From Escherichia phage inny, in the sequence record MN850601.1: a stretch of 64,000 nt of DNA; one strand, 5' to 3'. Each line of letters opens with the position of its first letter. Positions within the stretch are counted from its first letter, which is position 1. A model generated the notes under the pieces. The model was not told where the DNA came from. It worked only from the letters and a program-made list of their open reading frames with translations, and did no database searches. Shown here in pieces: positions 18,673 to 55,110 of the stretch. A program made the translations under genes and the position numbers.

Positions 18673-19650
18673 TTAAGCAACAGTCTGGTCTTCTTTTTCA
18701 GGGAAGATTAAACTTGCAATAACACCCAACCCAAGAGTACCTAACACAATATACATACTGATCGTCGGATCAATGTGTGCTGGCAGGAAACTCACTTTTG
18801 CGTGCAGAGTTTCTGCAAACGGATGATACATCAGTTTTACACCCACAAACACCAGGACTACGATAACTGCTTTCTCCAGATGAACCAAATACTTCAGTGC
18901 AACACTAAGAACAAAGAACAGAGCACGTAAACCTAAGATTGCACAAAGCATCGAAGAGAACACCAGCAGAGGTTCTTGTGTCACTGCAATTACTGCTGGA
19001 ACAGAGTCTACTGCAAAGATTACGTCTACCATTTCCATTACAAACACACAAACCAGAGCCGGAGTTGCTACACGAACACCATTTTTGATTGTGAAGAACT
19101 TCTCACCATCCATCTGATCAGATACAGGGAACAGCTTACGAACAATACGAGTAGCCCAGTGTTTAGAGTAATCAATTTCTGCATCATTATCCCCAGCGAA
19201 TACCATTTTAGCCGCACAGAAAAGGATGACAGCACCGAAGAAGATATTAACATACCAGCCCAAACTCAACAAGTAAGTACCTACTGCTACAAACACACCT
19301 CGGAAGACAATTGCACCTGCAATACCCCAAAGTAGAATCTTGTGCTGCAAGTGTGTGCTTTTAATACCAAAACTTGCGAAGACTGCCACAAATACTACTA
19401 AGTTATCTACAGAAAGAGATTTCTCCAACACATAACCACTCAAGAACAAGCTCGCAAAATCAGCACCGTGTTGGAAGTATACAAAACCATAGTAGGCTAA
19501 TGATACCCCAATCCAGAAAATTGACCAACCAATTGCAGATTTAAATGAGATCTCTTTGTTTTCTCTGTGTCCAAAGAAGTCAATACAAATCGACAAGACT
19601 AAAATACCCACTAAAACAACCACATCAATAATTGGGAAACCCAGTTGCAT
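18673..19650 (-). CDS. terC: TerC-family integral membrane protein
   Basis: 325 aa polytopic; LEKSLSVDNLVVFVAVF and AVDSVPAVIAV repeat motifs. Confidence 0.8.
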   Translation of the reverse strand: MQLGFPIIDVVVLVGILVLSICIDFFGHRENKEISFKSAIGWSIFWIGVSLAYYGFVYFQHGADFASLFLSGYVLEKSLSVDNLVVFVAVFASFGIKSTHLQHKILLWGIAGAIVFRGVFVAVGTYLLSLGWYVNIFFGAVILFCAAKMVFAGDNDAEIDYSKHWATRIVRKLFPVSDQMDGEKFFTIKNGVRVATPALVCVFVMEMVDVIFAVDSVPAVIAVTQEPLLVFSSMLCAILGLRALFFVLSVALKYLVHLEKAVIVVLVFVGVKLMYHPFAETLHAKVSFLPAHIDPTISMYIVLGTLGLGVIASLIFPEKEDQTVA

Positions 19651-20206: not shown

Positions 20207-20923
20207 TTATTTCAGTTTGTAAACAATTACATTTAAACCTTTGTTCACTAGAGTTTCTTCGATCATAAGTTTTACAATATTCCAAGAACCTCCAGCCAAA
20301 CCACAACCAAGCATTGGTAAACCTACAATTTTACCGCCTGAAGATACAACATCGTCTCCCATACTATCTAACGCATTGTAGATAGCTTCATAATTCAGGT
20401 CACGCTTACCTTCCTCACGACGACTATAACCATATTGTCCATATAAATTATAAATTGTCAAATTGTTTTCTGTATATTTGGTAAACGTACCTAATTTTTT
20501 ATAATCACCACGTTTAGTGGCACAATCTGCTTTAAACGCACCAGGCCACTTGCTTTTAATTTTTGGTGCAATACCACTACCCATAGTGCAAAAACAGTTA
20601 CAGCAGTGTGCTATAGCGTCTATATCGCCTCTCTCGGCTGCTGCTAAAAGATCACCGTATACCTCAATGATACCTGCCGGATAACTTGTTACAATTTCAT
20701 CTTCCCAATACATTTTCTCTACACCACCGATCAGTGCAAAGTTTTGTGTAATGCGATCATCAATATAGTTAAGACCTGAAACATACACAGCGTATTCATC
20801 CTGTGCTGTAATACCTTGCACACGAATTCTTAAGACACCATCTTTATCTGTTGCTACACGCCCAAAATCTTTTTCTGTAATATTGGTGATAGGATCTCCG
20901 AAAGTCATTACTTTATTAGACAT
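20207..20923 (-). CDS. macro-domain (ADP-ribose binding/processing) protein
   Basis: Track ORF trimmed to ATG (MSNKVMTF...) with AAGGGGA SD; IDAIAHCCNCFCTMGSGIA and LPMLGCGLAGGSW resemble macro motifs. Confidence 0.6.
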   Translation of the reverse strand: MSNKVMTFGDPITNITEKDFGRVATDKDGVLRIRVQGITAQDEYAVYVSGLNYIDDRITQNFALIGGVEKMYWEDEIVTSYPAGIIEVYGDLLAAAERGDIDAIAHCCNCFCTMGSGIAPKIKSKWPGAFKADCATKRGDYKKLGTFTKYTENNLTIYNLYGQYGYSRREEGKRDLNYEAIYNALDSMGDDVVSSGGKIVGLPMLGCGLAGGSWNIVKLMIEETLVNKGLNVIVYKLK

Positions 20924-21773
20924 AATAATCCCCTTTAACATTAGGTTTGTTGATAATGTTGCTTTCAAAAAATTGACGTAGGAAATCAAAGTTCTCTTTG
21001 TATTTTTCAATGTTATTGTAACCTTCTGCAAGGCAACCAAAGAACAGTTGTTCTACATAATACAAAGGAAGTTGTGAAAGTGCAATTTTAAAATCAACTT
21101 CGCTTTGACTCATTAGATACTTAATAGGACGAACCAAACATTTAGCATCAGCTTCTTGCTTAATCATTTTAATAAAAGCTGCCAGATTATTGATATAGTT
21201 GAAGTTAAGTGCAGCTTCGGTGTTGGCTTCTGTACCTTCATACTTTGCAAAGTACAGGAAAAACGTATCGTTTTCAACACCTTCTTTGTCTAAAATTTCA
21301 ATAAGTTTTTCTTCGTGTGTTCCTGTAATATTAACATCATCAATGAAAATCAGAGTTTTATTACCCCAGAAATCACGATTGATAGAGAAAGTGTCACCAT
21401 CGATCAAAGCCTTACGATCTTCTTTGCTAAGAAATCCATAATCATTGATATAGCTCACTTTACGATGAACGATATCCCACTCCACTGGTTTACCACCTTT
21501 GATAGAGATTAGGTAGTTGAGGTGATCTACAAAATGTTCAGATAACACTGTAGCTGCATTTTTCACATAGTTATATGGAGATGGAATAACAACAAAACTT
21601 TCATTTACCAGTCGTTCTTCATACTTAGAAAAGAAACTTTCAGCCAGAATGCGCCCCATTCTTTTTGCTGCCTGGTTACTACCAAACTTTAGTTTGGAAT
21701 AATCTGCAATGTTAAATTTTGCTTCCTTCAGGTTAGTAAAAGTATTAGCAAAATGTTGAATTTGATTACGCAT
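20916..21773 (-). CDS. phosphoribosyltransferase (PRTase)-like protein
   Basis: 285 aa; TLIFIDDVNITGTH resembles PRPP-binding motif. Confidence 0.5.
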   Translation of the reverse strand: MRNQIQHFANTFTNLKEAKFNIADYSKLKFGSNQAAKRMGRILAESFFSKYEERLVNESFVVIPSPYNYVKNAATVLSEHFVDHLNYLISIKGGKPVEWDIVHRKVSYINDYGFLSKEDRKALIDGDTFSINRDFWGNKTLIFIDDVNITGTHEEKLIEILDKEGVENDTFFLYFAKYEGTEANTEAALNFNYINNLAAFIKMIKQEADAKCLVRPIKYLMSQSEVDFKIALSQLPLYYVEQLFFGCLAEGYNNIEKYKENFDFLRQFFESNIINKPNVKGDYYV

Positions 21774-22422
21774 TAATAAGTTCCTCTTTTTTAAGTTTAG
21801 CCAACAAGTCTTCTGGATTAATAATATGACAGAACTTCATCCCTATGTCAACAGCTTTTCCATCATAAATCAAACTATCTCCAACGTGTAAAATCTCTTC
21901 TGGTGCGAGATCAAACGTCACCATTTCATCAAAAGAGAGTTTAAAAAACCTAGGATCTGGTTTACACAAGCAAAACTCGTCAGAAAAATGCATAAAGTCA
22001 AATGGTAATTTTGTTAAGCCAGAATATACAGCTAAGAAACTACCTGGTACAAAATTAGTATTGCTCTTAATACTCAAAGAGTAGGTTGAACTTAGCTCTT
22101 CCAACTTCTTGCAAAGTTCAGGATTCAATGTTGGAGGATGTTTTATAAACATTGCCAAACAATCTCTTTTTAACCCATCCACTTTATCAAGATCAATGTT
22201 CAAACGAGTAGAAAGTGTTACCCAAGCATCCTTAGACGTTCCACAAATGCCTTTTTCTGCTTTTAAATCCAAGAAAGTTTTTACCTCTTTGTATACGGTA
22301 GCTGCTTCTGCCTCAGAGCAAGAGGCATACTCGGCAATAACCTTGTTGCGCTCTTCTGCATACAAAGGGTTAGCAGTAATAAGAGTATTCCATACATCAA
22401 AAGAAATATGCTTAACAGTCAT
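21766..22422 (-). CDS. HAD-superfamily hydrolase
   Basis: Track ORF trimmed to ATG (MTVKH...) with GGAGGA SD; motif I ISFDVWNTL, motif IV HVGDSLIYDG. Confidence 0.55.
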   Translation of the reverse strand: MTVKHISFDVWNTLITANPLYAEERNKVIAEYASCSEAEAATVYKEVKTFLDLKAEKGICGTSKDAWVTLSTRLNIDLDKVDGLKRDCLAMFIKHPPTLNPELCKKLEELSSTYSLSIKSNTNFVPGSFLAVYSGLTKLPFDFMHFSDEFCLCKPDPRFFKLSFDEMVTFDLAPEEILHVGDSLIYDGKAVDIGMKFCHIINPEDLLAKLKKEELINA

Positions 22423-22591
22423 TTTTAATCCTCCGTCCAAAAGAATATCATCTGCTTAATTTTATTGATTTCTTGATGTAGTAACTTTCCAGCATGTGAT
22501 TGATCTTTAATATTGACAGCAAGAATTTCAAGTTCCGTTAGTTTTTCTTGGATAGCTTTATATTCATCATCTGTAAGCATTTTCTTCCCCT

Positions 22592-22829: not shown

Positions 22830-23990
22830 TTAGTAAGAACGACCACCAAACACATACTCTGTGTAGTTTTTACGTTCTTTGTTTTTAATAACAACTTCAA
22901 TGTTGTTGCCTTTATCATCGGTGAACACAAAGTGATAACCGTCACCACCCATTGTACGGATGTGTTTTTCATCATACGTCAGCAAGATACGGTCTACACC
23001 CCAGTAGTAGTCACCTTCTTCATCTTTGTCTTCTACTGTAACGACCCCTTCCATTTCAGGAAGATGCTCCTCTCCTAGCTTATGGTCTACAGCTACAACA
23101 TAACGATTACCGCTAAACAAACCCTGTGCTGTCATACCGTCAATATCGGTATCTGCCGAAACATCTCCTGTACGATCTACACCGTTAACTTTCAGGAGTT
23201 TAACTTCTTTTGCAGCATAGCGGTGTTCAGTAATACTGATACCCATTAATGCAAGTGCATCAGAGAATTTGTCATTAGGGTAACGGTTAAGTTCTTCTAC
23301 TAGTGACTGAACAATATCAAAGTTCAAGTCCACGGAAAGATTATAAAGCGTTTCAAAATCTGGTAAAAAGGCTTTGTTCTCCAGATTTTTAGCCAGATAG
23401 TCATCCATAGTAGCTTTAGGTAGTTTCTTATAGCTAAAACTGTAGAAAATACGGCTAGGACGATTACGCAAAAATTCTGATACATAACCATCATTTTTAG
23501 TCAATACAAACAGCTTGTCATAGCCACCTACACCATCCAGCAGAGTAAGCAAACCATCCTGTGCATCTTTTTCAGCATACAGTTTATCAAATTCATCGAT
23601 CATAATCATCACAGGTTGTGTGATTTTAGACATAAAATTGATAAAGCCTTCGCCATTAAAAGCACTACCGATAGAAATAGTAGGAATACCCATTTCACGA
23701 AGAGCAGAAGACAGCATTTTAGCTTGCAAAGTTTTACCACTACCCTTCGTACCCTCAAGGAGAACACCTGTGTTTTTACCTTTGCGGCTAAGGAACGTCT
23801 TGATAATACGTTCTGATTTATCATCAGTATCACCGTATGTTACTGAAGGGACTTCCATATCGTTTTTAGGATACAGGAAGAACTCACCACTTTGAGTAAC
23901 ACCTACACCAAAAGTTCCTGCTGGAATTTCTTCAATATCTGTACCAGATTTCTGACGCAGGAAGATTTGATTGCCGAATACTGTAAACAT
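22830..23990 (-). CDS. AAA+ ATPase (classic AAA clade)
   Basis: 386 aa; Walker A GTKGSGKT, Walker B IMIDEFDK, LLTLLDG, FLRNRPSRIFYSF; paralog of 39536..40663. Confidence 0.75.
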   Translation of the reverse strand: MFTVFGNQIFLRQKSGTDIEEIPAGTFGVGVTQSGEFFLYPKNDMEVPSVTYGDTDDKSERIIKTFLSRKGKNTGVLLEGTKGSGKTLQAKMLSSALREMGIPTISIGSAFNGEGFINFMSKITQPVMIMIDEFDKLYAEKDAQDGLLTLLDGVGGYDKLFVLTKNDGYVSEFLRNRPSRIFYSFSYKKLPKATMDDYLAKNLENKAFLPDFETLYNLSVDLNFDIVQSLVEELNRYPNDKFSDALALMGISITEHRYAAKEVKLLKVNGVDRTGDVSADTDIDGMTAQGLFSGNRYVVAVDHKLGEEHLPEMEGVVTVEDKDEEGDYYWGVDRILLTYDEKHIRTMGGDGYHFVFTDDKGNNIEVVIKNKERKNYTEYVFGGRSY

Positions 23991-39535: not shown

Positions 39536-40663
39536 ATGAAATACACGATTTATGGTGATATTGTAAGTGTAAATAAAGATATGGGCGTGGAATCTAACTA
39601 TCTTCCACCTGGATTCTATACTGTTAGTCGTGATCCCCTTGGCAATTACTTTTTAAGCCGTGGTAATCTAACAGGTGTACCGGATGTTCTGTATGGTGAA
39701 ACAGAAAAACGAGCAAATCACGTTATTCGTACATTCCATCGCCGGAGTGCACAAGGTAAAAACACAGGTTTGCTCCTGACAGGCACTAAGGGCAGTGGTA
39801 AAACTATGTTAGCCAAACTCATTAGTCGTGACCTTGTAGAAGAAGGTATTCCAACTATTATGGTTACTCAAGCCTACAGCGATGCTAATTTCATTGAACT
39901 TATTAGCAAGATCACCGACAAAGCAGTGATTATTTTTGACGAGTTTGATAAAGTATATGAGAAGAAACAAGATCAAGAAGCACTTCTCACTTTGTTAGAT
40001 GGTACTGGCAGTGGTAATAAACTGTTTATTCTAACTAAAAACAGTGGCTTTATCTCTGAATTCTTTCTAAATCGTCCTAGTCGTGTGTTTTATAATTTTA
40101 ATTATGATAAAATCTCACTAGAAACTATGATTGACTATTTAGATAAAAACCTGGATAACAAAGCACACTTTGATAATTTCCAAAGGCTTTGGGATGTAAG
40201 TTTAGAGTTGTCCTTTGATGTGATCCAAGGTATAGTAGAAGAACTTAATTTCTACCCTGATTTATCCTTTAAAGAATGCATCTCTATGATGGGCGTTTCT
40301 TTGGGTGGTGGTAATAAGTGGGATATCAGCAGCGTTGTTATTAATGGGAAACTTCAGAAAGTTAGCTGGGTATCTAGTTGGCATAACTTCACACCTGCAA
40401 TCTTTTTAGGTGGCTCGTGCACACTAGACGTGTACTTGTCATCTCCAAGTGATGCAGACTCTAAAGAAGCCCTTGCTAATAGCTCTTACGTGGTTTTTGA
40501 TGATGAAGGAGATGCTCGAATTCCATTGAATGCGACAAAAATGAAAGCAGATCTTATTACAGGCGGTAAAATCGTTGTGTTTAGTGATGATCCAGAAGAT
40601 TCTTTCCGTATTGTTCTGGAACCAACTATCACCAATGGTGCAACTTTGGCAAGCGTGTTTTAA
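39536..40663 (+). CDS. AAA+ ATPase (classic AAA clade), paralog of 22830..23990
   Basis: 375 aa; Walker A GTKGSGKT, Walker B IIFDEFDK, LLTLLDG, FLNRPSRVFYNF. Confidence 0.75.
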   Translation: MKYTIYGDIVSVNKDMGVESNYLPPGFYTVSRDPLGNYFLSRGNLTGVPDVLYGETEKRANHVIRTFHRRSAQGKNTGLLLTGTKGSGKTMLAKLISRDLVEEGIPTIMVTQAYSDANFIELISKITDKAVIIFDEFDKVYEKKQDQEALLTLLDGTGSGNKLFILTKNSGFISEFFLNRPSRVFYNFNYDKISLETMIDYLDKNLDNKAHFDNFQRLWDVSLELSFDVIQGIVEELNFYPDLSFKECISMMGVSLGGGNKWDISSVVINGKLQKVSWVSSWHNFTPAIFLGGSCTLDVYLSSPSDADSKEALANSSYVVFDDEGDARIPLNATKMKADLITGGKIVVFSDDPEDSFRIVLEPTITNGATLASVF

Positions 40664-40679
40664 GTAAGCCAGCAAATAA

Positions 40680-40702
40680 AAACCCGCTCCGGCGGGTTTT
40701 CT
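40680..40702 (+). terminator. rho-independent terminator
   Basis: AAACCCGC-TCCG-GCGGGTTT followed by TCTTG, 17 nt after ATPase stop. Confidence 0.6.
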
Positions 40703-40737: not shown

Positions 40738-41910
40738 ATGACAGCACCAAAATCATGGGAACAATATAAAGAAGAATTAACACCCCTTGCTAAAAATCGC
40801 AATATTCAAATCCGGGGTTATGTTGGTGAATGGAAAGGGAACAAGACTAAACTTAAGCTATCTTGCCCTAAACATGGAGAGTGGAACACCACGAACATTA
40901 ATGATTTTAAGAAGGGACGTGGTTGTCCTATCTGTTCTGGTAAGAAGCCGTTAACATGGGAAACAGAATTGCCGATCTTGGAAGAGATAGCACAGAAGAG
41001 GGGGTATCAGGTGTTAGGGTACGTGGGAGAATGGAAAGGGAATAAAACAAAACTTGATTTGTTGTGTCATTGTGGTAATAAATGGGATACTACAAGTATT
41101 AACAATTTTAAACGTGGTAGCGGTTGTCCACAATGTAAGAGGGAGAGACAAACAATGTCCGACGATCAACATATTGCAGATTTCTTTTCTACAGGGGAAT
41201 TTAAGGAAGGCACTATCTTCACCAATACAGGGAAACGTAACAAGCGTGATGCAGTATGGATGGTTGAGTGTCCTGTTTGCTCCCATGATGAATATGTTCA
41301 AGCAGGTGTTTGTGATGGTAAATTTTACTCTGCAGGACATAACCTTAAACAAGGGTATATTCCGTGTCGTTGTGGGAACTATCAGTATACAGAAGACCAG
41401 ATCACCTATAGGGTAAAAAAGGAAGTAGAAGGGAAAGGGTATGTCTGGGTAGATTGGATTACCAAACCCTCTTCTATAGGTAAGTTTAAATATCTTTGTC
41501 TTGTGCATGGTGAGCAGATAGGGAGTGCTCGTAATTTATTAAGCCTCGGTCAAGGTTGTCCACAGTGTGCTGGTCATAATCAACAGCAATTATATATTAA
41601 TATTGTTAAAGATAATGATATTATAGTTGCTCTTAAGTTTGGTATATCTAAAGATAGCGATAGACGATTAAACGGTCAAAATAGCCGTAATCTGTTTTTT
41701 ATGGAGCGTATTTGTTTATATGATTTTAGCACAGTGAAACAATGTAGGGCTGCTGAAAGAGCTATAAAGAAAAAATTAAAAACTGGTATTTTAACGGCAA
41801 GAGAGTTGAAAGATGGTTATACAGAAACAGTAAGTGTTTCTGATTTGGAAAATCTTCAAAAAATTATTACACAATATGGTGGCAAATTAGTATACAGTAA
41901 GGAGATGTAA
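40738..41910 (+). CDS. multi-zinc-ribbon repeat protein (possible nucleic-acid-binding/nuclease)
   Basis: 390 aa; four repeats of GYVGEWKGNKTKL...W.TT.IN.FK.G.GCP.C type; CxxC pairs. Confidence 0.55.
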   Translation: MTAPKSWEQYKEELTPLAKNRNIQIRGYVGEWKGNKTKLKLSCPKHGEWNTTNINDFKKGRGCPICSGKKPLTWETELPILEEIAQKRGYQVLGYVGEWKGNKTKLDLLCHCGNKWDTTSINNFKRGSGCPQCKRERQTMSDDQHIADFFSTGEFKEGTIFTNTGKRNKRDAVWMVECPVCSHDEYVQAGVCDGKFYSAGHNLKQGYIPCRCGNYQYTEDQITYRVKKEVEGKGYVWVDWITKPSSIGKFKYLCLVHGEQIGSARNLLSLGQGCPQCAGHNQQQLYINIVKDNDIIVALKFGISKDSDRRLNGQNSRNLFFMERICLYDFSTVKQCRAAERAIKKKLKTGILTARELKDGYTETVSVSDLENLQKIITQYGGKLVYSKEM

Positions 41911-42462
41911 ATGCGGATTACTGATAAGTATGTGTTCTTCTTCTCGGCAAAAGATGAATTTAGCAACTGGTATCTATCATCTTTTATTGAACCTTTAGCT
42001 CCCAAGTATAATAATTCTATTACAAGTTCTGTTGAATTTACTTGTGTGGAACAATATATGATGTGGAGAAAAGCATGTTTGTTTTATGATTACAACATTG
42101 CATCTTCTATTTTAACCGGAGATCTAAGATATACAGGAGAAAAAGAACAGGCATATTATAAGCGACTAGGTAGATTAGTTAAAGATTACGATGAAGCTAC
42201 TTGGACTTCTTTACGGGAGAAGATTGTCAAGCGTGGTTTGTATCTTAAATACACACAAAATGAAGATCTCAAAAATAAACTTATCGCTTACGCAGATAAG
42301 GAGTTCGTAGAGGCAAGCCCTTATGATTCTATTTATGGTATCAAAATGGGAATGTGGGATCGTGATGTGGAAAATAAGGACTGTTGGAAAGGACAAAATC
42401 TTTTAGGAAAATGGCATACAGACCTTGCTGTTTATCTAAAAGCACAATCTGATATTTCCTGA
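41911..42462 (+). CDS. NADAR (YbiA-like, DUF1768) domain protein
   Basis: 183 aa; FFFSAKDEFSNWY, FTCVEQYMMWRKA, EASPYDSIYGIKMG, WKGQNLLGKW align with YbiA as recalled. Confidence 0.7.
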   Translation: MRITDKYVFFFSAKDEFSNWYLSSFIEPLAPKYNNSITSSVEFTCVEQYMMWRKACLFYDYNIASSILTGDLRYTGEKEQAYYKRLGRLVKDYDEATWTSLREKIVKRGLYLKYTQNEDLKNKLIAYADKEFVEASPYDSIYGIKMGMWDRDVENKDCWKGQNLLGKWHTDLAVYLKAQSDIS

Positions 42463-42678
42463 TATTTTGAAAATTTTTATTTTTATAAAAAGGGGTGTGG
42501 GTTTCATGTACGGAAATCCACCCTCTGAATAATATATCCAGAGTAAATATTATTCTGTACTCTGTTAATAAAGTATTTAATTTGTTTGTTTGACTATGGT
42601 ATCTGATCTTTAAAAGACATACTATCTCTTAACTACTACTTATAACAGAACAGTAAAATCATTTTTATAAAAAGTACA

Positions 42679-42885
42679 AAATTATTTAAAGTTTTTACAG
42701 ATTTTTGGGTACAAATTTTGAAAATGAAAAGTTCAAGTTTGGTCAAAATTATTTAAAGTTTTTGTACGTATTTCTGTCCAGATTTTGAAAATGAAAACTT
42801 CAATTTTTTAAAAATTCCCCAGTTTATTTAAAGTTTTTTTGCCTTTTTCCGTAGAAAAATCAAAAATGAAAAGTTCAATTTCGTG
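42679..42885. repeat. three tandem copies of a ~66-bp unit (ATTTAAAGTTTTT ... TTTGAAAATGAAAAGTTCAA)
   Basis: Direct repeats seen at about 42679, 42746, 42811. Confidence 0.7.
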
Positions 42886-42899
42886 TTTTTATAGGTGTG

Positions 42900-43015
42900 T
42901 TAATGAGAATCATTTTCGTTTGTAAATGAGAATCATTATCATTTAACTATGTAAGTGATAATCATTCTCAGTAAGAGAATGAGAATCATTAGCAAATGAG
43001 AATTTTCTCATTTAG
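42900..43015. promoter_or_regulatory. cluster of five ATGAGAATCATT-type palindromic boxes (Fur-box-like)
   Basis: atgagaatcatt x2, gtgataatcattctca, aatgagaatcatt, aatgagaattttctcatt; ATGAGAATCATTATC matches 14/15 of the Fur consensus core. Confidence 0.45.
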
Positions 43016-43244
43016 AGAATAACGCGCAGGGGCGGTGTTTGTCTCGCGCTCCCGTGTCCCCTCGCCATACAATAAGAATAGCATAACCAACAACAAAAGC
43101 AAGCGATTATTTTTATCTTTACATTTCTTTACAAATTTATTTTAGACGAGCTACCGGCGATCAACCTTCCAACCAGTGCCCCCTGGTATGTTAGCCCCGC
43201 CTTTACGCCGTGGGGGTGGCGTTTCCTCTTCTGTATGTAAAACA

Positions 43245-43272
43245 GTATAAGCCCGATCCCTGGGCTTGTCAA
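43245..43272 (-). promoter_or_regulatory. orphan sigma70-like promoter (TTGACA-N17-TATACT) reading leftward into GC-rich non-coding DNA
   Basis: Reverse complement of tgtcaa...agtata; no ORF with plausible start downstream. Confidence 0.35.
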
Positions 43273-53951: not shown

Positions 53952-54025
53952 AAATGATAATCATTCTTATCTATAGCTGATTATTTATGCAATAAATTGC
54001 ATAATGCAATAATGATAATCATTCC
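53952..54025. promoter_or_regulatory. two Fur-box-like palindromes
   Basis: AAATGATAATCATTCTTATC and ATAATGATAATCATTC against consensus GATAATGATAATCATTATC. Confidence 0.45.
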
Positions 54026-54892: not shown

Positions 54893-54915
54893 TGCAAATG
54901 ATAATCATTATCAAC
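54893..54915. promoter_or_regulatory. near-consensus Fur-box-like palindrome
   Basis: AAATGATAATCATTATC matches 16/17 of Fur consensus TAATGATAATCATTATC. Confidence 0.5.
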
Positions 54916-55078: not shown

Positions 55079-55110
55079 GAATGATAATGCAAATGATAAT
55101 TATTCTCATT
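55079..55110. promoter_or_regulatory. tandem Fur-box-like half-sites
   Basis: GAATGATAATGCAAATGATAATTATTCTCATT. Confidence 0.4.

Follow-up and report, generated by a model that had tools for sequence, protein, structure and literature searches.

A stand-alone NADAR gene of an Escherichia Justusliebigvirus, very probably an AdfN-type counter-defence against DarT1

Escherichia phage inny carries a gene that very probably encodes a stand-alone phage NADAR ADP-ribosylglycohydrolase, the Bas60-type AdfN ('anti-DarT factor NADAR'), which would repair DNA modified by DarT1. The gene (41911..42462, + strand, 183 aa plus stop) lies in a window of 64,000 nucleotides, the whole stretch of DNA analysed here, taken from sequence record MN850601.1. 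DarT1 attaches ADP-ribose (ADPr) to the guanine N2 amino group of DNA, stopping phage replication, and NADARs hydrolyse the bond (PMC11543638 among others); guanine-linked ADPr hydrolysis on nucleic acid has been reported for representatives of all NADAR families. A sequence-only reading of this DNA, made from the raw letters without search tools, had already proposed a NADAR that removes ADPr from guanine as a counter to DarT. It thereby correctly recognised a phage counter-defence gene whose biology was published in 2025. That hypothesis was correct and is in essence already demonstrated, because an essentially identical protein has been tested (main text of PMC11825919); the function of the gene can be considered known since that of its near-identical orthologue (98-99%) is published.

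The window is DNA of a Justusliebigvirus-type E. coli myovirus. The 5 kb around the NADAR gene are 99.5% identical at the nucleotide level to Escherichia phage Paula, and show 95-99% identity to some forty other Justusliebigvirus phages (Stephanstirmvirinae), including the BASEL phages JohannJBalmer and PaulScherrer. In phage outra the NADAR protein is 100% identical in amino acid sequence. A tblastn search finds homologues in 716 phage records, and in 55 of these the protein is at least 95% identical.

The NADAR open reading frame starts with an ATG at 41911 and runs without interruption to its stop codon (42460-42462); the strand opposite it is closed by many stops. A Shine-Dalgarno sequence, AAGGAG (41899..41904, + strand), can be read directly from the sequence 6 nt 5' of the ATG. 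The four motifs on which the gene was originally recognised are all present in the translation: FFFSAKDEFSNWY at residues 9-21, CVEQYMMWRKA at residues 45-55, EASPYDSIYGIKMG at residues 134-147 and WKGQNLLGKW at residues 159-168.

Profile searches bear out the assignment to the NADAR family. Pfam PF08719 matches with E=2.3e-36 (126 bits against a cut-off of 35.1), residues 13-168 of the protein aligning to profile positions 9-154 of 163; phrog_1017 (E=4.4e-50) and the PADLOC model PDC-M42C (E=1.9e-34) agree. When the single sequence was searched against solved structures, the NADAR of Phytophthora nicotianae (PnNADAR, 8bau) was the sole clear match (E=2.5e-12, 50.5 bits), with E. coli K-12 YbiA (2b3w) marginal at 17.5 bits and E=0.033. 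We also built a phage-family profile of 11 sequences, the NADAR protein plus ten phage homologues at 35-62% identity; against solved structures it found 8bau at E=7.1e-36 and 2b3w at E=5.1e-15, and no DarG1-type structure at E<=1. An AlphaFold2 model made from the single sequence was of unusably low confidence (mean pLDDT 47.8, pTM 0.42), so that the fold assignment rests on sequence and profile homology. By that homology, membership of the NADAR superfamily is far beyond chance, and a YbiA-like core fold is predicted. The earlier label 'YbiA-like' thus holds at the level of the superfamily; close kinship to E. coli YbiA does not (17.5 bits, as against 50.5 for PnNADAR), and the term is a loose one.

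The predicted active site can be followed residue by residue. The ADPr-contacting residues of PnNADAR, and those supported by mutagenesis, are given by Schuller et al. 2023 (PMC11543638). Numbering in the deposited 8BAU chain equals theirs plus 2, the sole offset that fits all 13 residue types, and the residues were mapped onto the phage protein through a HMMER alignment. All 13 contact residues map, 11 of them to identical residues: E43 to E47, K50 to K54, K75 to K84, G78 to G87, R79 to R88, V81 to V90, Y84 to Y93, W89 to W98, R93 to R102, E125 to E134 and D130 to D139. The other two changes are conservative (D86 to E95, W133 to Y142). Among the 11 diverse phage sequences of our alignment, only 35-62% identical overall, E47, K54, K84, G87, R88, W98, E134 and D139 are invariant. 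We predict an active site comprising E47, K54, K84, R88, W98, R102, E134 and D139. The position equivalent to PnNADAR E125 is of particular use for classification: it is Glu (E134, in an EASP motif) in the NADAR protein and in all 10 other aligned phage homologues, which places the protein in the generic/YbiA class and not in the T4 'phage NADAR' class, where a His stands.

The closest characterised protein is AdfN^Bas60, and it is the same gene. Locus tags show PaulScherrer to be Bas60 and JohannJBalmer to be Bas62, and the identity with AdfN^Bas60 was set by these bas60_ and bas62_ tags together with synteny. The proteins bas60_0111 and bas62_0106, both annotated 'putative YbiA-like N-glycosidase', occupy the syntenic position after AAA ATPase and endonuclease genes, are likewise of 183 aa, and are stand-alone, with no adjacent DarT. 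Identity of the NADAR protein is 180/183 (98%) to bas60_0111, with the substitutions N62S, A96D and A178T, and 182/183 (99%) to bas62_0106, with the substitution A96T; none of these falls at a mapped ADPr contact residue. The differences therefore amount to three substitutions (Bas60) or one (Bas62) in another phage isolate. The main text of PMC11825919 calls Bas60, Bas61 and Bas62 Vequintavirinae; in GenBank they now stand under Justusliebigvirus, a genus of Stephanstirmvirinae.

Johannesman et al. 2025 (Nat Commun 16:1598, PMC11825919) gave the NADAR of Bas60/61/62 the name AdfN^Bas60, and their main text supplies the functional evidence. AdfN^Bas60 neutralised the DarT1 toxin in uninfected E. 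coli, with no other phage factor, and when it was expressed ectopically in DarTG1 hosts the DarTG1-sensitive phages RB69, T5 and Bas25 plated at full titre again. Thymidine-modifying DarTG2 was unaffected. In the phylogeny published there, AdfN^Bas60 groups with bacterial NADARs that are neither DarT-associated nor YbiA, and from this clustering its acquisition is taken to be independent of that of T4's AdfN. For AdfN^Bas60 the data come from in vivo work, which implies hydrolysis of guanine-linked ADPr, the purified-enzyme assays and catalytic mutants of that main text being described for AdfN^T4 only. The ectopic and in vivo assays against DarT that the sequence-only reading proposed have thus largely been done by others, on the orthologue. 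A deletion in a native phage (Bas60/61/62 or any Justusliebigvirus) is not reported in the literature examined, which for PMC11825919 means its main text, and searches on DarTG with Justusliebigvirus, or on a Stephanstirmvirinae macrodomain, returned nothing relevant. This very allele presumably behaves as its orthologue does, and the native phage would be expected to rely on it.

Compared with the known NADAR types, the protein is of the generic stand-alone type, and not of the DarG1, T4 or K-12 YbiA type. Membership of each of these three was considered and rejected, at least one defining feature failing in each case. AdfN^T4 (gp30.3) is alike in being an orphan phage NADAR that removes guanine-linked DNA ADPr and counters DarTG1, and in having a Glu and a Lys seven positions apart (E36/K43 in T4, E47/K54 here). 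The T4-type enzymes differ in the His that stands in place of E134 and that the literature (PMC11543638 among others) describes as characteristic of T4-like NADARs. They differ also in behaviour: AdfN^T4 is fully active only in a T-even context and cannot by itself rescue from DarT1 toxicity, which AdfN^Bas60 can (main text of PMC11825919; PMC11125620). The two are mutually undetectable by BLAST or PSI-BLAST and were acquired independently, according to the main text of PMC11825919.

DarG1 (of E. coli C7 and G. lovleyi) hydrolyses guanine N2-ADPr and neutralises DarT1, as the NADAR protein probably does by analogy, and the Lys that DarG1 requires in vivo (C7 K115, equivalent to Pn K75) is K84 here. 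DarG1, however, lies in an operon with DarT1, whereas the phage gene has no ART gene beside it, its upstream neighbour being an endonuclease gene. The N-terminal beta1-beta2-alpha1 extension of DarG1 is also absent; the NADAR profile match already starts at residue 13 of 183, too early to leave space for one. At the position of the DarG1-specific catalytic Asp (C7 D171) the phage protein has Glu (E134), as do PnNADAR and YbiA. YbiA itself (2B3W; COG3236/TIGR02464) shares the superfamily, the core fold and the Glu at the catalytic position, and is reached by the phage-family profile (E=5e-15), but it is distant from the NADAR protein itself (E=0.033). YbiA serves as a housekeeping N-glycosidase for riboflavin damage, is encoded in an operon under LexA control and gives no protection from DarT1 in vivo (PMC11125620). 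PnNADAR remains the best solved relative, all 13 contacts aligning, the YbiA-class Glu (E125, here E134) included. It differs in its low overall identity, its eukaryotic origin, the lack of any known counter-defence role, and at two contacts (W133 and D86, against Y142 and E95 here).

With these residues a mechanism can be outlined, in which the roles of individual side chains would follow the description of the PnNADAR co-crystal. A host toxin of DarT1 type would modify the guanine N2 amino group in phage DNA, blocking replication. The NADAR enzyme would then bind the ADPr moiety, the pyrophosphate being held by K54, R88, W98 and R102, the adenine stacking on Y93 and the distal ribose being positioned by E47/E134, and would hydrolyse the N-glycosidic bond. 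Unmodified guanine would be restored and the phage could replicate. By analogy, the activity is probably specific to guanine-linked DNA ADPr, because AdfN^Bas60 failed against DarTG2, which modifies thymidine. The earlier reading had spoken of immunity that ADP-ribosylates DNA or protein; for DNA, at guanine, this stands, while nothing indicates protein de-ADP-ribosylation.

The gene is also an orphan, given that no DarT is adjacent to it in the window; the annotation of 45 kb of the related phage Bas62 shows none either. Its cellular kin are remote. In a scan of species-representative bacterial genomes, the best cellular relatives were at most 43-46% identical, from Caballeronia/Burkholderia, Kofleriaceae, Paenibacillus, Brachyspira and others, and no enterobacteria were among the best 80. 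The 131 open reading frames immediately flanking these relatives were scanned against Pfam, and 25 of the 105 families found were listed. Recurrent among the families listed are a phage-type recombination directionality factor (8), microbial PARG (6), NUDIX (5), NrtR (4), Hen1 (4) and NAPRTase (2), which is an NAD/ADP-ribose and RNA-repair context; no DarT is among those 25 families.

Three other readings of the gene have to be weighed against a DarT1-directed DNA repair enzyme. By the nearest, which extends that reading more than it opposes it, the generic-family NADAR would also clear cytidine-ADPr and RNA guanosine-ADPr, with targets beyond DarT1 such as pierisin/ScARP-like or unknown defence toxins. 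By sequence the protein is nearest to the generic type (PnNADAR), with Glu at the E125 equivalent. Enzymes of the generic NADAR family and those of YbiA type remove C-ADPr from DNA and RNA, which DarG1s and the T4 NADAR do not (Toxins 2026, PMC12945103), and all NADAR families tested remove RNA G-ADPr. Johannesman et al. (PMC11825919, main text) themselves remark that such counter-defences may also act on other systems that ADP-ribosylate DNA or RNA. Yet no cytidine-ADP-ribosylating phage-defence system is known, and the promiscuity of NADARs in vitro does not predict protection in vivo (PMC11125620), so we regard this wider range as a possibility on the doubtful side. It is quite improbable that the protein acts instead on soluble ADPr derivatives, or binds them, or inhibits an NAD-consuming effector, be it by degrading ADPr-derived immune signals or without catalysis, in the way that a NADAR-like phage protein inhibits Retron-Eco1. 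Soluble ADPr derivatives were proposed as targets of phage NADARs by Iyer et al. 2022 (PMC9503650). Another phage NADAR protein works without enzymatic activity (Carabias et al. 2024, Retron-Eco1, as remarked in the main text of PMC11825919), and Nudix/NrtR, NAPRTase and PARG genes adjoin the cellular relatives. Against this, AdfN^Bas60, nearly identical in sequence, acts directly against a toxin that modifies DNA and lets phages grow again, the NADAR protein keeps the complete set of catalytic residues, and the Retron-Eco1 inhibitor is a protein of a different phage lineage. Neither soluble-ADPr nor non-enzymatic action is needed for the published AdfN^Bas60 phenotype; either may be an additional role.

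Less credible still is a housekeeping N-glycosidase of YbiA type, acting on reactive riboflavin-pathway intermediates (Frelin et al. 2015), even though database labels point that way. The NADAR protein passes NCBIfam TIGR02464 ('riboflavin biosynthesis intermediates N-glycosidase', ribofla_fusion) with 109.8 bits against a cut-off of 73.7, but this model covers the whole NADAR domain and therefore has no power to separate subfamilies. The match does explain GenBank labels of orthologues and homologues such as 'YbiA-like N-glycosidase'; the name 'GTP cyclohydrolase II' given in phage SF1-1 goes back to a riboflavin fusion protein matched by structure. The match to E. coli YbiA itself is weak beside that to PnNADAR, and the published phylogeny (PMC11825919, main text) places AdfN^Bas60 among non-YbiA, non-DarG1 bacterial NADARs. 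No riboflavin genes lie near the NADAR gene in the phage, and no riboflavin enzyme is among the 25 families listed beside the cellular relatives. The reading of the gene as a DarT1-countering AdfN bears on annotation, many GenBank records giving 'hypothetical protein', 'YbiA-like N-glycosidase' or 'GTP cyclohydrolase II', and it could help in selecting phages for therapy or typing that are likely to withstand E. coli with DarTG1.

The window also holds a macro-domain gene (20207..20941, - strand, 244 aa) at a locus separate from the NADAR unit, its product having a C-terminal macrodomain of TARG1/SCO6735/DarG-like kind. The match to Pfam Macro has E=3e-7 (30.8 bits, cut-off 22). Its best match in NCBIfam and PADLOC is the DarG macrodomain (E about 1e-13), at a score far under the equivalog cut-off. 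Among solved structures the best matches include S. coelicolor SCO6735 (5e3b, E=3.4e-15), human TARG1 (E=3.7e-10) and BT1257, with T. aquaticus DarG a weak match (E=1e-3). SCO6735 and TARG1 are reported to reverse the thymidine-ADPr made by DarT2 (PMC12945103 among others), and chimalliviruses are protected by AdfM, an orphan DarG2-like macrodomain. Because these relatives reverse T-ADPr and AdfM protects chimalliviruses, it is reasonable to regard the macro protein as a candidate thymidine-ADPr hydrolase that may serve against DarTG2.

Homologues of the macrodomain are found in 2,907 phage records, those of T4-like phages among them. Macro and NADAR co-occur in DNA viruses above chance, and 27% of myoviruses carry NADAR (PMC9503650); given this frequent co-occurrence, the presence of two ADPr folds in one phage is common, and already known, among large myoviruses. 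The second fold that the sequence-only reading reported is real, but the macro gene is not linked to the NADAR gene, from which it lies 21 kb away, on the opposite strand. It has a Macro-PRTase-HAD cassette of its own, overlapping a ComF-like PRTase gene (PF15610, 1.3e-41) that is followed by a HAD hydrolase gene. A NADAR-Macro operon or functional cassette was rejected on the distance, the opposite strands and these separate neighbours. A looser partnership can still be imagined, in which a broad-spectrum NADAR (also acting on C-ADPr and RNA G-ADPr) and the separate macrodomain, as candidate T-ADPr hydrolase, would form a two-enzyme toolkit against ADP-ribosylation of G, C and T bases in Justusliebigviruses. 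The broad spectrum is suggested by the generic Glu-type active site of AdfN, nearest to PnNADAR and not of DarG1 or T4 type. We hold this toolkit to be unlikely; if true, it would mean that E. coli has base-ADP-ribosylating defences beyond DarT1 and DarT2.

The immediate neighbours of the NADAR gene are an AAA ATPase gene and an endonuclease gene, and the 1.5 kb downstream are essentially non-coding. Over the whole window, neither the tRNA scan nor the Rfam scan gave a match. The endonuclease gene (40738..41910, + strand) encodes a putative homing-type endonuclease of 390 aa with three CapR-homology zinc-finger repeats and a T5orf172 domain (Pfam CapR, E=5.9e-43; T5orf172, E=6e-4; phrog_681 endonuclease, E=3.4e-87). 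Its TAA (41908-41910) directly adjoins the NADAR ATG. This arrangement suggests that the two genes are co-transcribed, and perhaps that their translation is coupled too. The endonuclease gene would share the transcription unit, but we draw no functional link from this; the length of its product differs between relatives (467 aa in Bas60, 335 aa in SF1-1). A strong terminator-like hairpin (40679-40700) lies before the pair, and a sigma-70 promoter scan gave no convincing promoter directly 5' of the pair, after that hairpin. Beyond the NADAR gene, an imperfect GC-rich hairpin with 14 paired bases (42491..42526, + strand) begins 29 nt past the stop codon and has no T-tract. The terminator scan made no call there; the RNA of 42455-42545 folds at -22.1 kcal/mol (z=-2.04), and the structure could perhaps be a transcript-end or stabilising hairpin.

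The gene lying directly 5′ of the NADAR gene, which it adjoins, encodes a putative homing endonuclease combining CapR-repeat zinc-finger and T5orf172 elements (40738-41910, + strand). Its size differs among close relatives: 390 aa in both inny and Bas62 (phage JohannJBalmer), 467 aa in Bas60 (phage PaulScherrer; L002 1739-3142) and 335 aa in Shigella phage SF1-1 (L004 1446-2453). Because of this length variation the megablast matches are split in two, and the variation suggests that the endonuclease beside the counter-defence gene is a mobile or decaying selfish element.

A mobile setting is also suggested for the cellular relatives of NADAR, the closest of which, among the matches listed, are from Caballeronia/Paraburkholderia (∼40–43% identity). 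Directly 5′ of NADAR in these relatives is a gene for a Gp3-like recombination directionality factor (PF18897). This family was found in 8 of the 131 ORFs directly flanking NADAR in cellular relatives (best E = 5.6e-41), and loci with the gene just upstream of the NADAR match include L013, L015, L019, L020, L025 and other Burkholderiaceae loci. Such adjacency suggests that the ‘bacterial’ NADAR copies in Burkholderiaceae are carried by prophages or integrative elements. In GenBank the majority of orthologues are still called ‘hypothetical protein’. The homologues of SF1-1 (L004 3001-3543) and Klebsiella phage KP12 (H36) are labelled ‘GTP cyclohydrolase II’, a name that in SF1-1, according to the record note, was carried over from a riboflavin-biosynthesis fusion protein matched by structure; the label looks like a spreading mis-annotation.

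The macrodomain gene (20207-20941, − strand) is one member of a three-gene cassette on the − strand (20207-22440) whose neighbouring ORFs overlap or abut, together with genes for a HAD-family hydrolase (21766-22440, −) and a ComF-like PRTase_3 phosphoribosyltransferase (20916-21773, −; PF15610, E = 1.3e-41). The macrodomain protein has an unassigned N-terminal extension of ∼90 aa, and its full-length form including this extension is limited to ∼56 phage records; a literature search on the extended protein and the cassette found nothing. The cassette may be a module for nucleotide or ADP-ribose processing, or one directed against the thymidine-modifying defence DarTG2.

The NADAR gene is followed by a gene-poor stretch of ∼1.5 kb containing three AT-rich units in tandem (42661-42881), ∼70 nt each with 72% identity to the first and each closed by a TTTGAAAATGAAAAGTTCAA-like sequence. 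In the related phage alia ‘repeat_region’ features are annotated under the same 5-kb match. Possibilities for these units are iterons/an origin or a promoter array.

Fur-box-like palindromes are clustered at 42902-42990, ∼450 bp 3′ of the NADAR stop codon, where three exact copies of AATGAGAATCATT (at 42902, 42925 and 42978) are interleaved with three further copies bearing two mismatches. Exact copies of the Escherichia coli Fur-box core, AATGATAATCATT, lie at 53953, 54011 and 54897; sites also noted outside the cluster are 53953-53965, 54011-54023, 54897-54909 and 55092-55110. Allowing up to two mismatches, the window holds 18 matches versus 4.55 ± 2.08 expected, a count reached in 0 of 100 shuffles. 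The sites may serve as phage promoters under the control of host Fur, as a decoy for Fur or as targets of a phage protein.

Further downstream, two convergent GC-rich terminator-like hairpins (43197-43228, +; 43267-43249, −) are set in an intergenic region that is AT-rich elsewhere, overlapped by a sigma-70-like promoter (11/12) on the − strand (43272-43244). The hairpin pair at 43197-43267 is likely a border between transcription units.

Two AAA+ ATPase genes on opposite strands (22830-23990, −, 385 aa; 39536-40663, +, 375 aa) appear to be paralogues: their domain layout is identical and they resemble each other in N-terminal sequence. The latter matches phrog_2376 ‘ATPase’ (6.6e-108), and records of relatives label it ‘FtsH-like protease’ or ‘ATPase or Zn metalloprotease’; a domain search of it found the AAA module only, with no protease domain detected. 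An auxiliary gene out of the ordinary for a lytic phage encodes a TerC-family integral membrane protein of 325 aa (18673-19650, −; PF03741, E = 1.4e-38).
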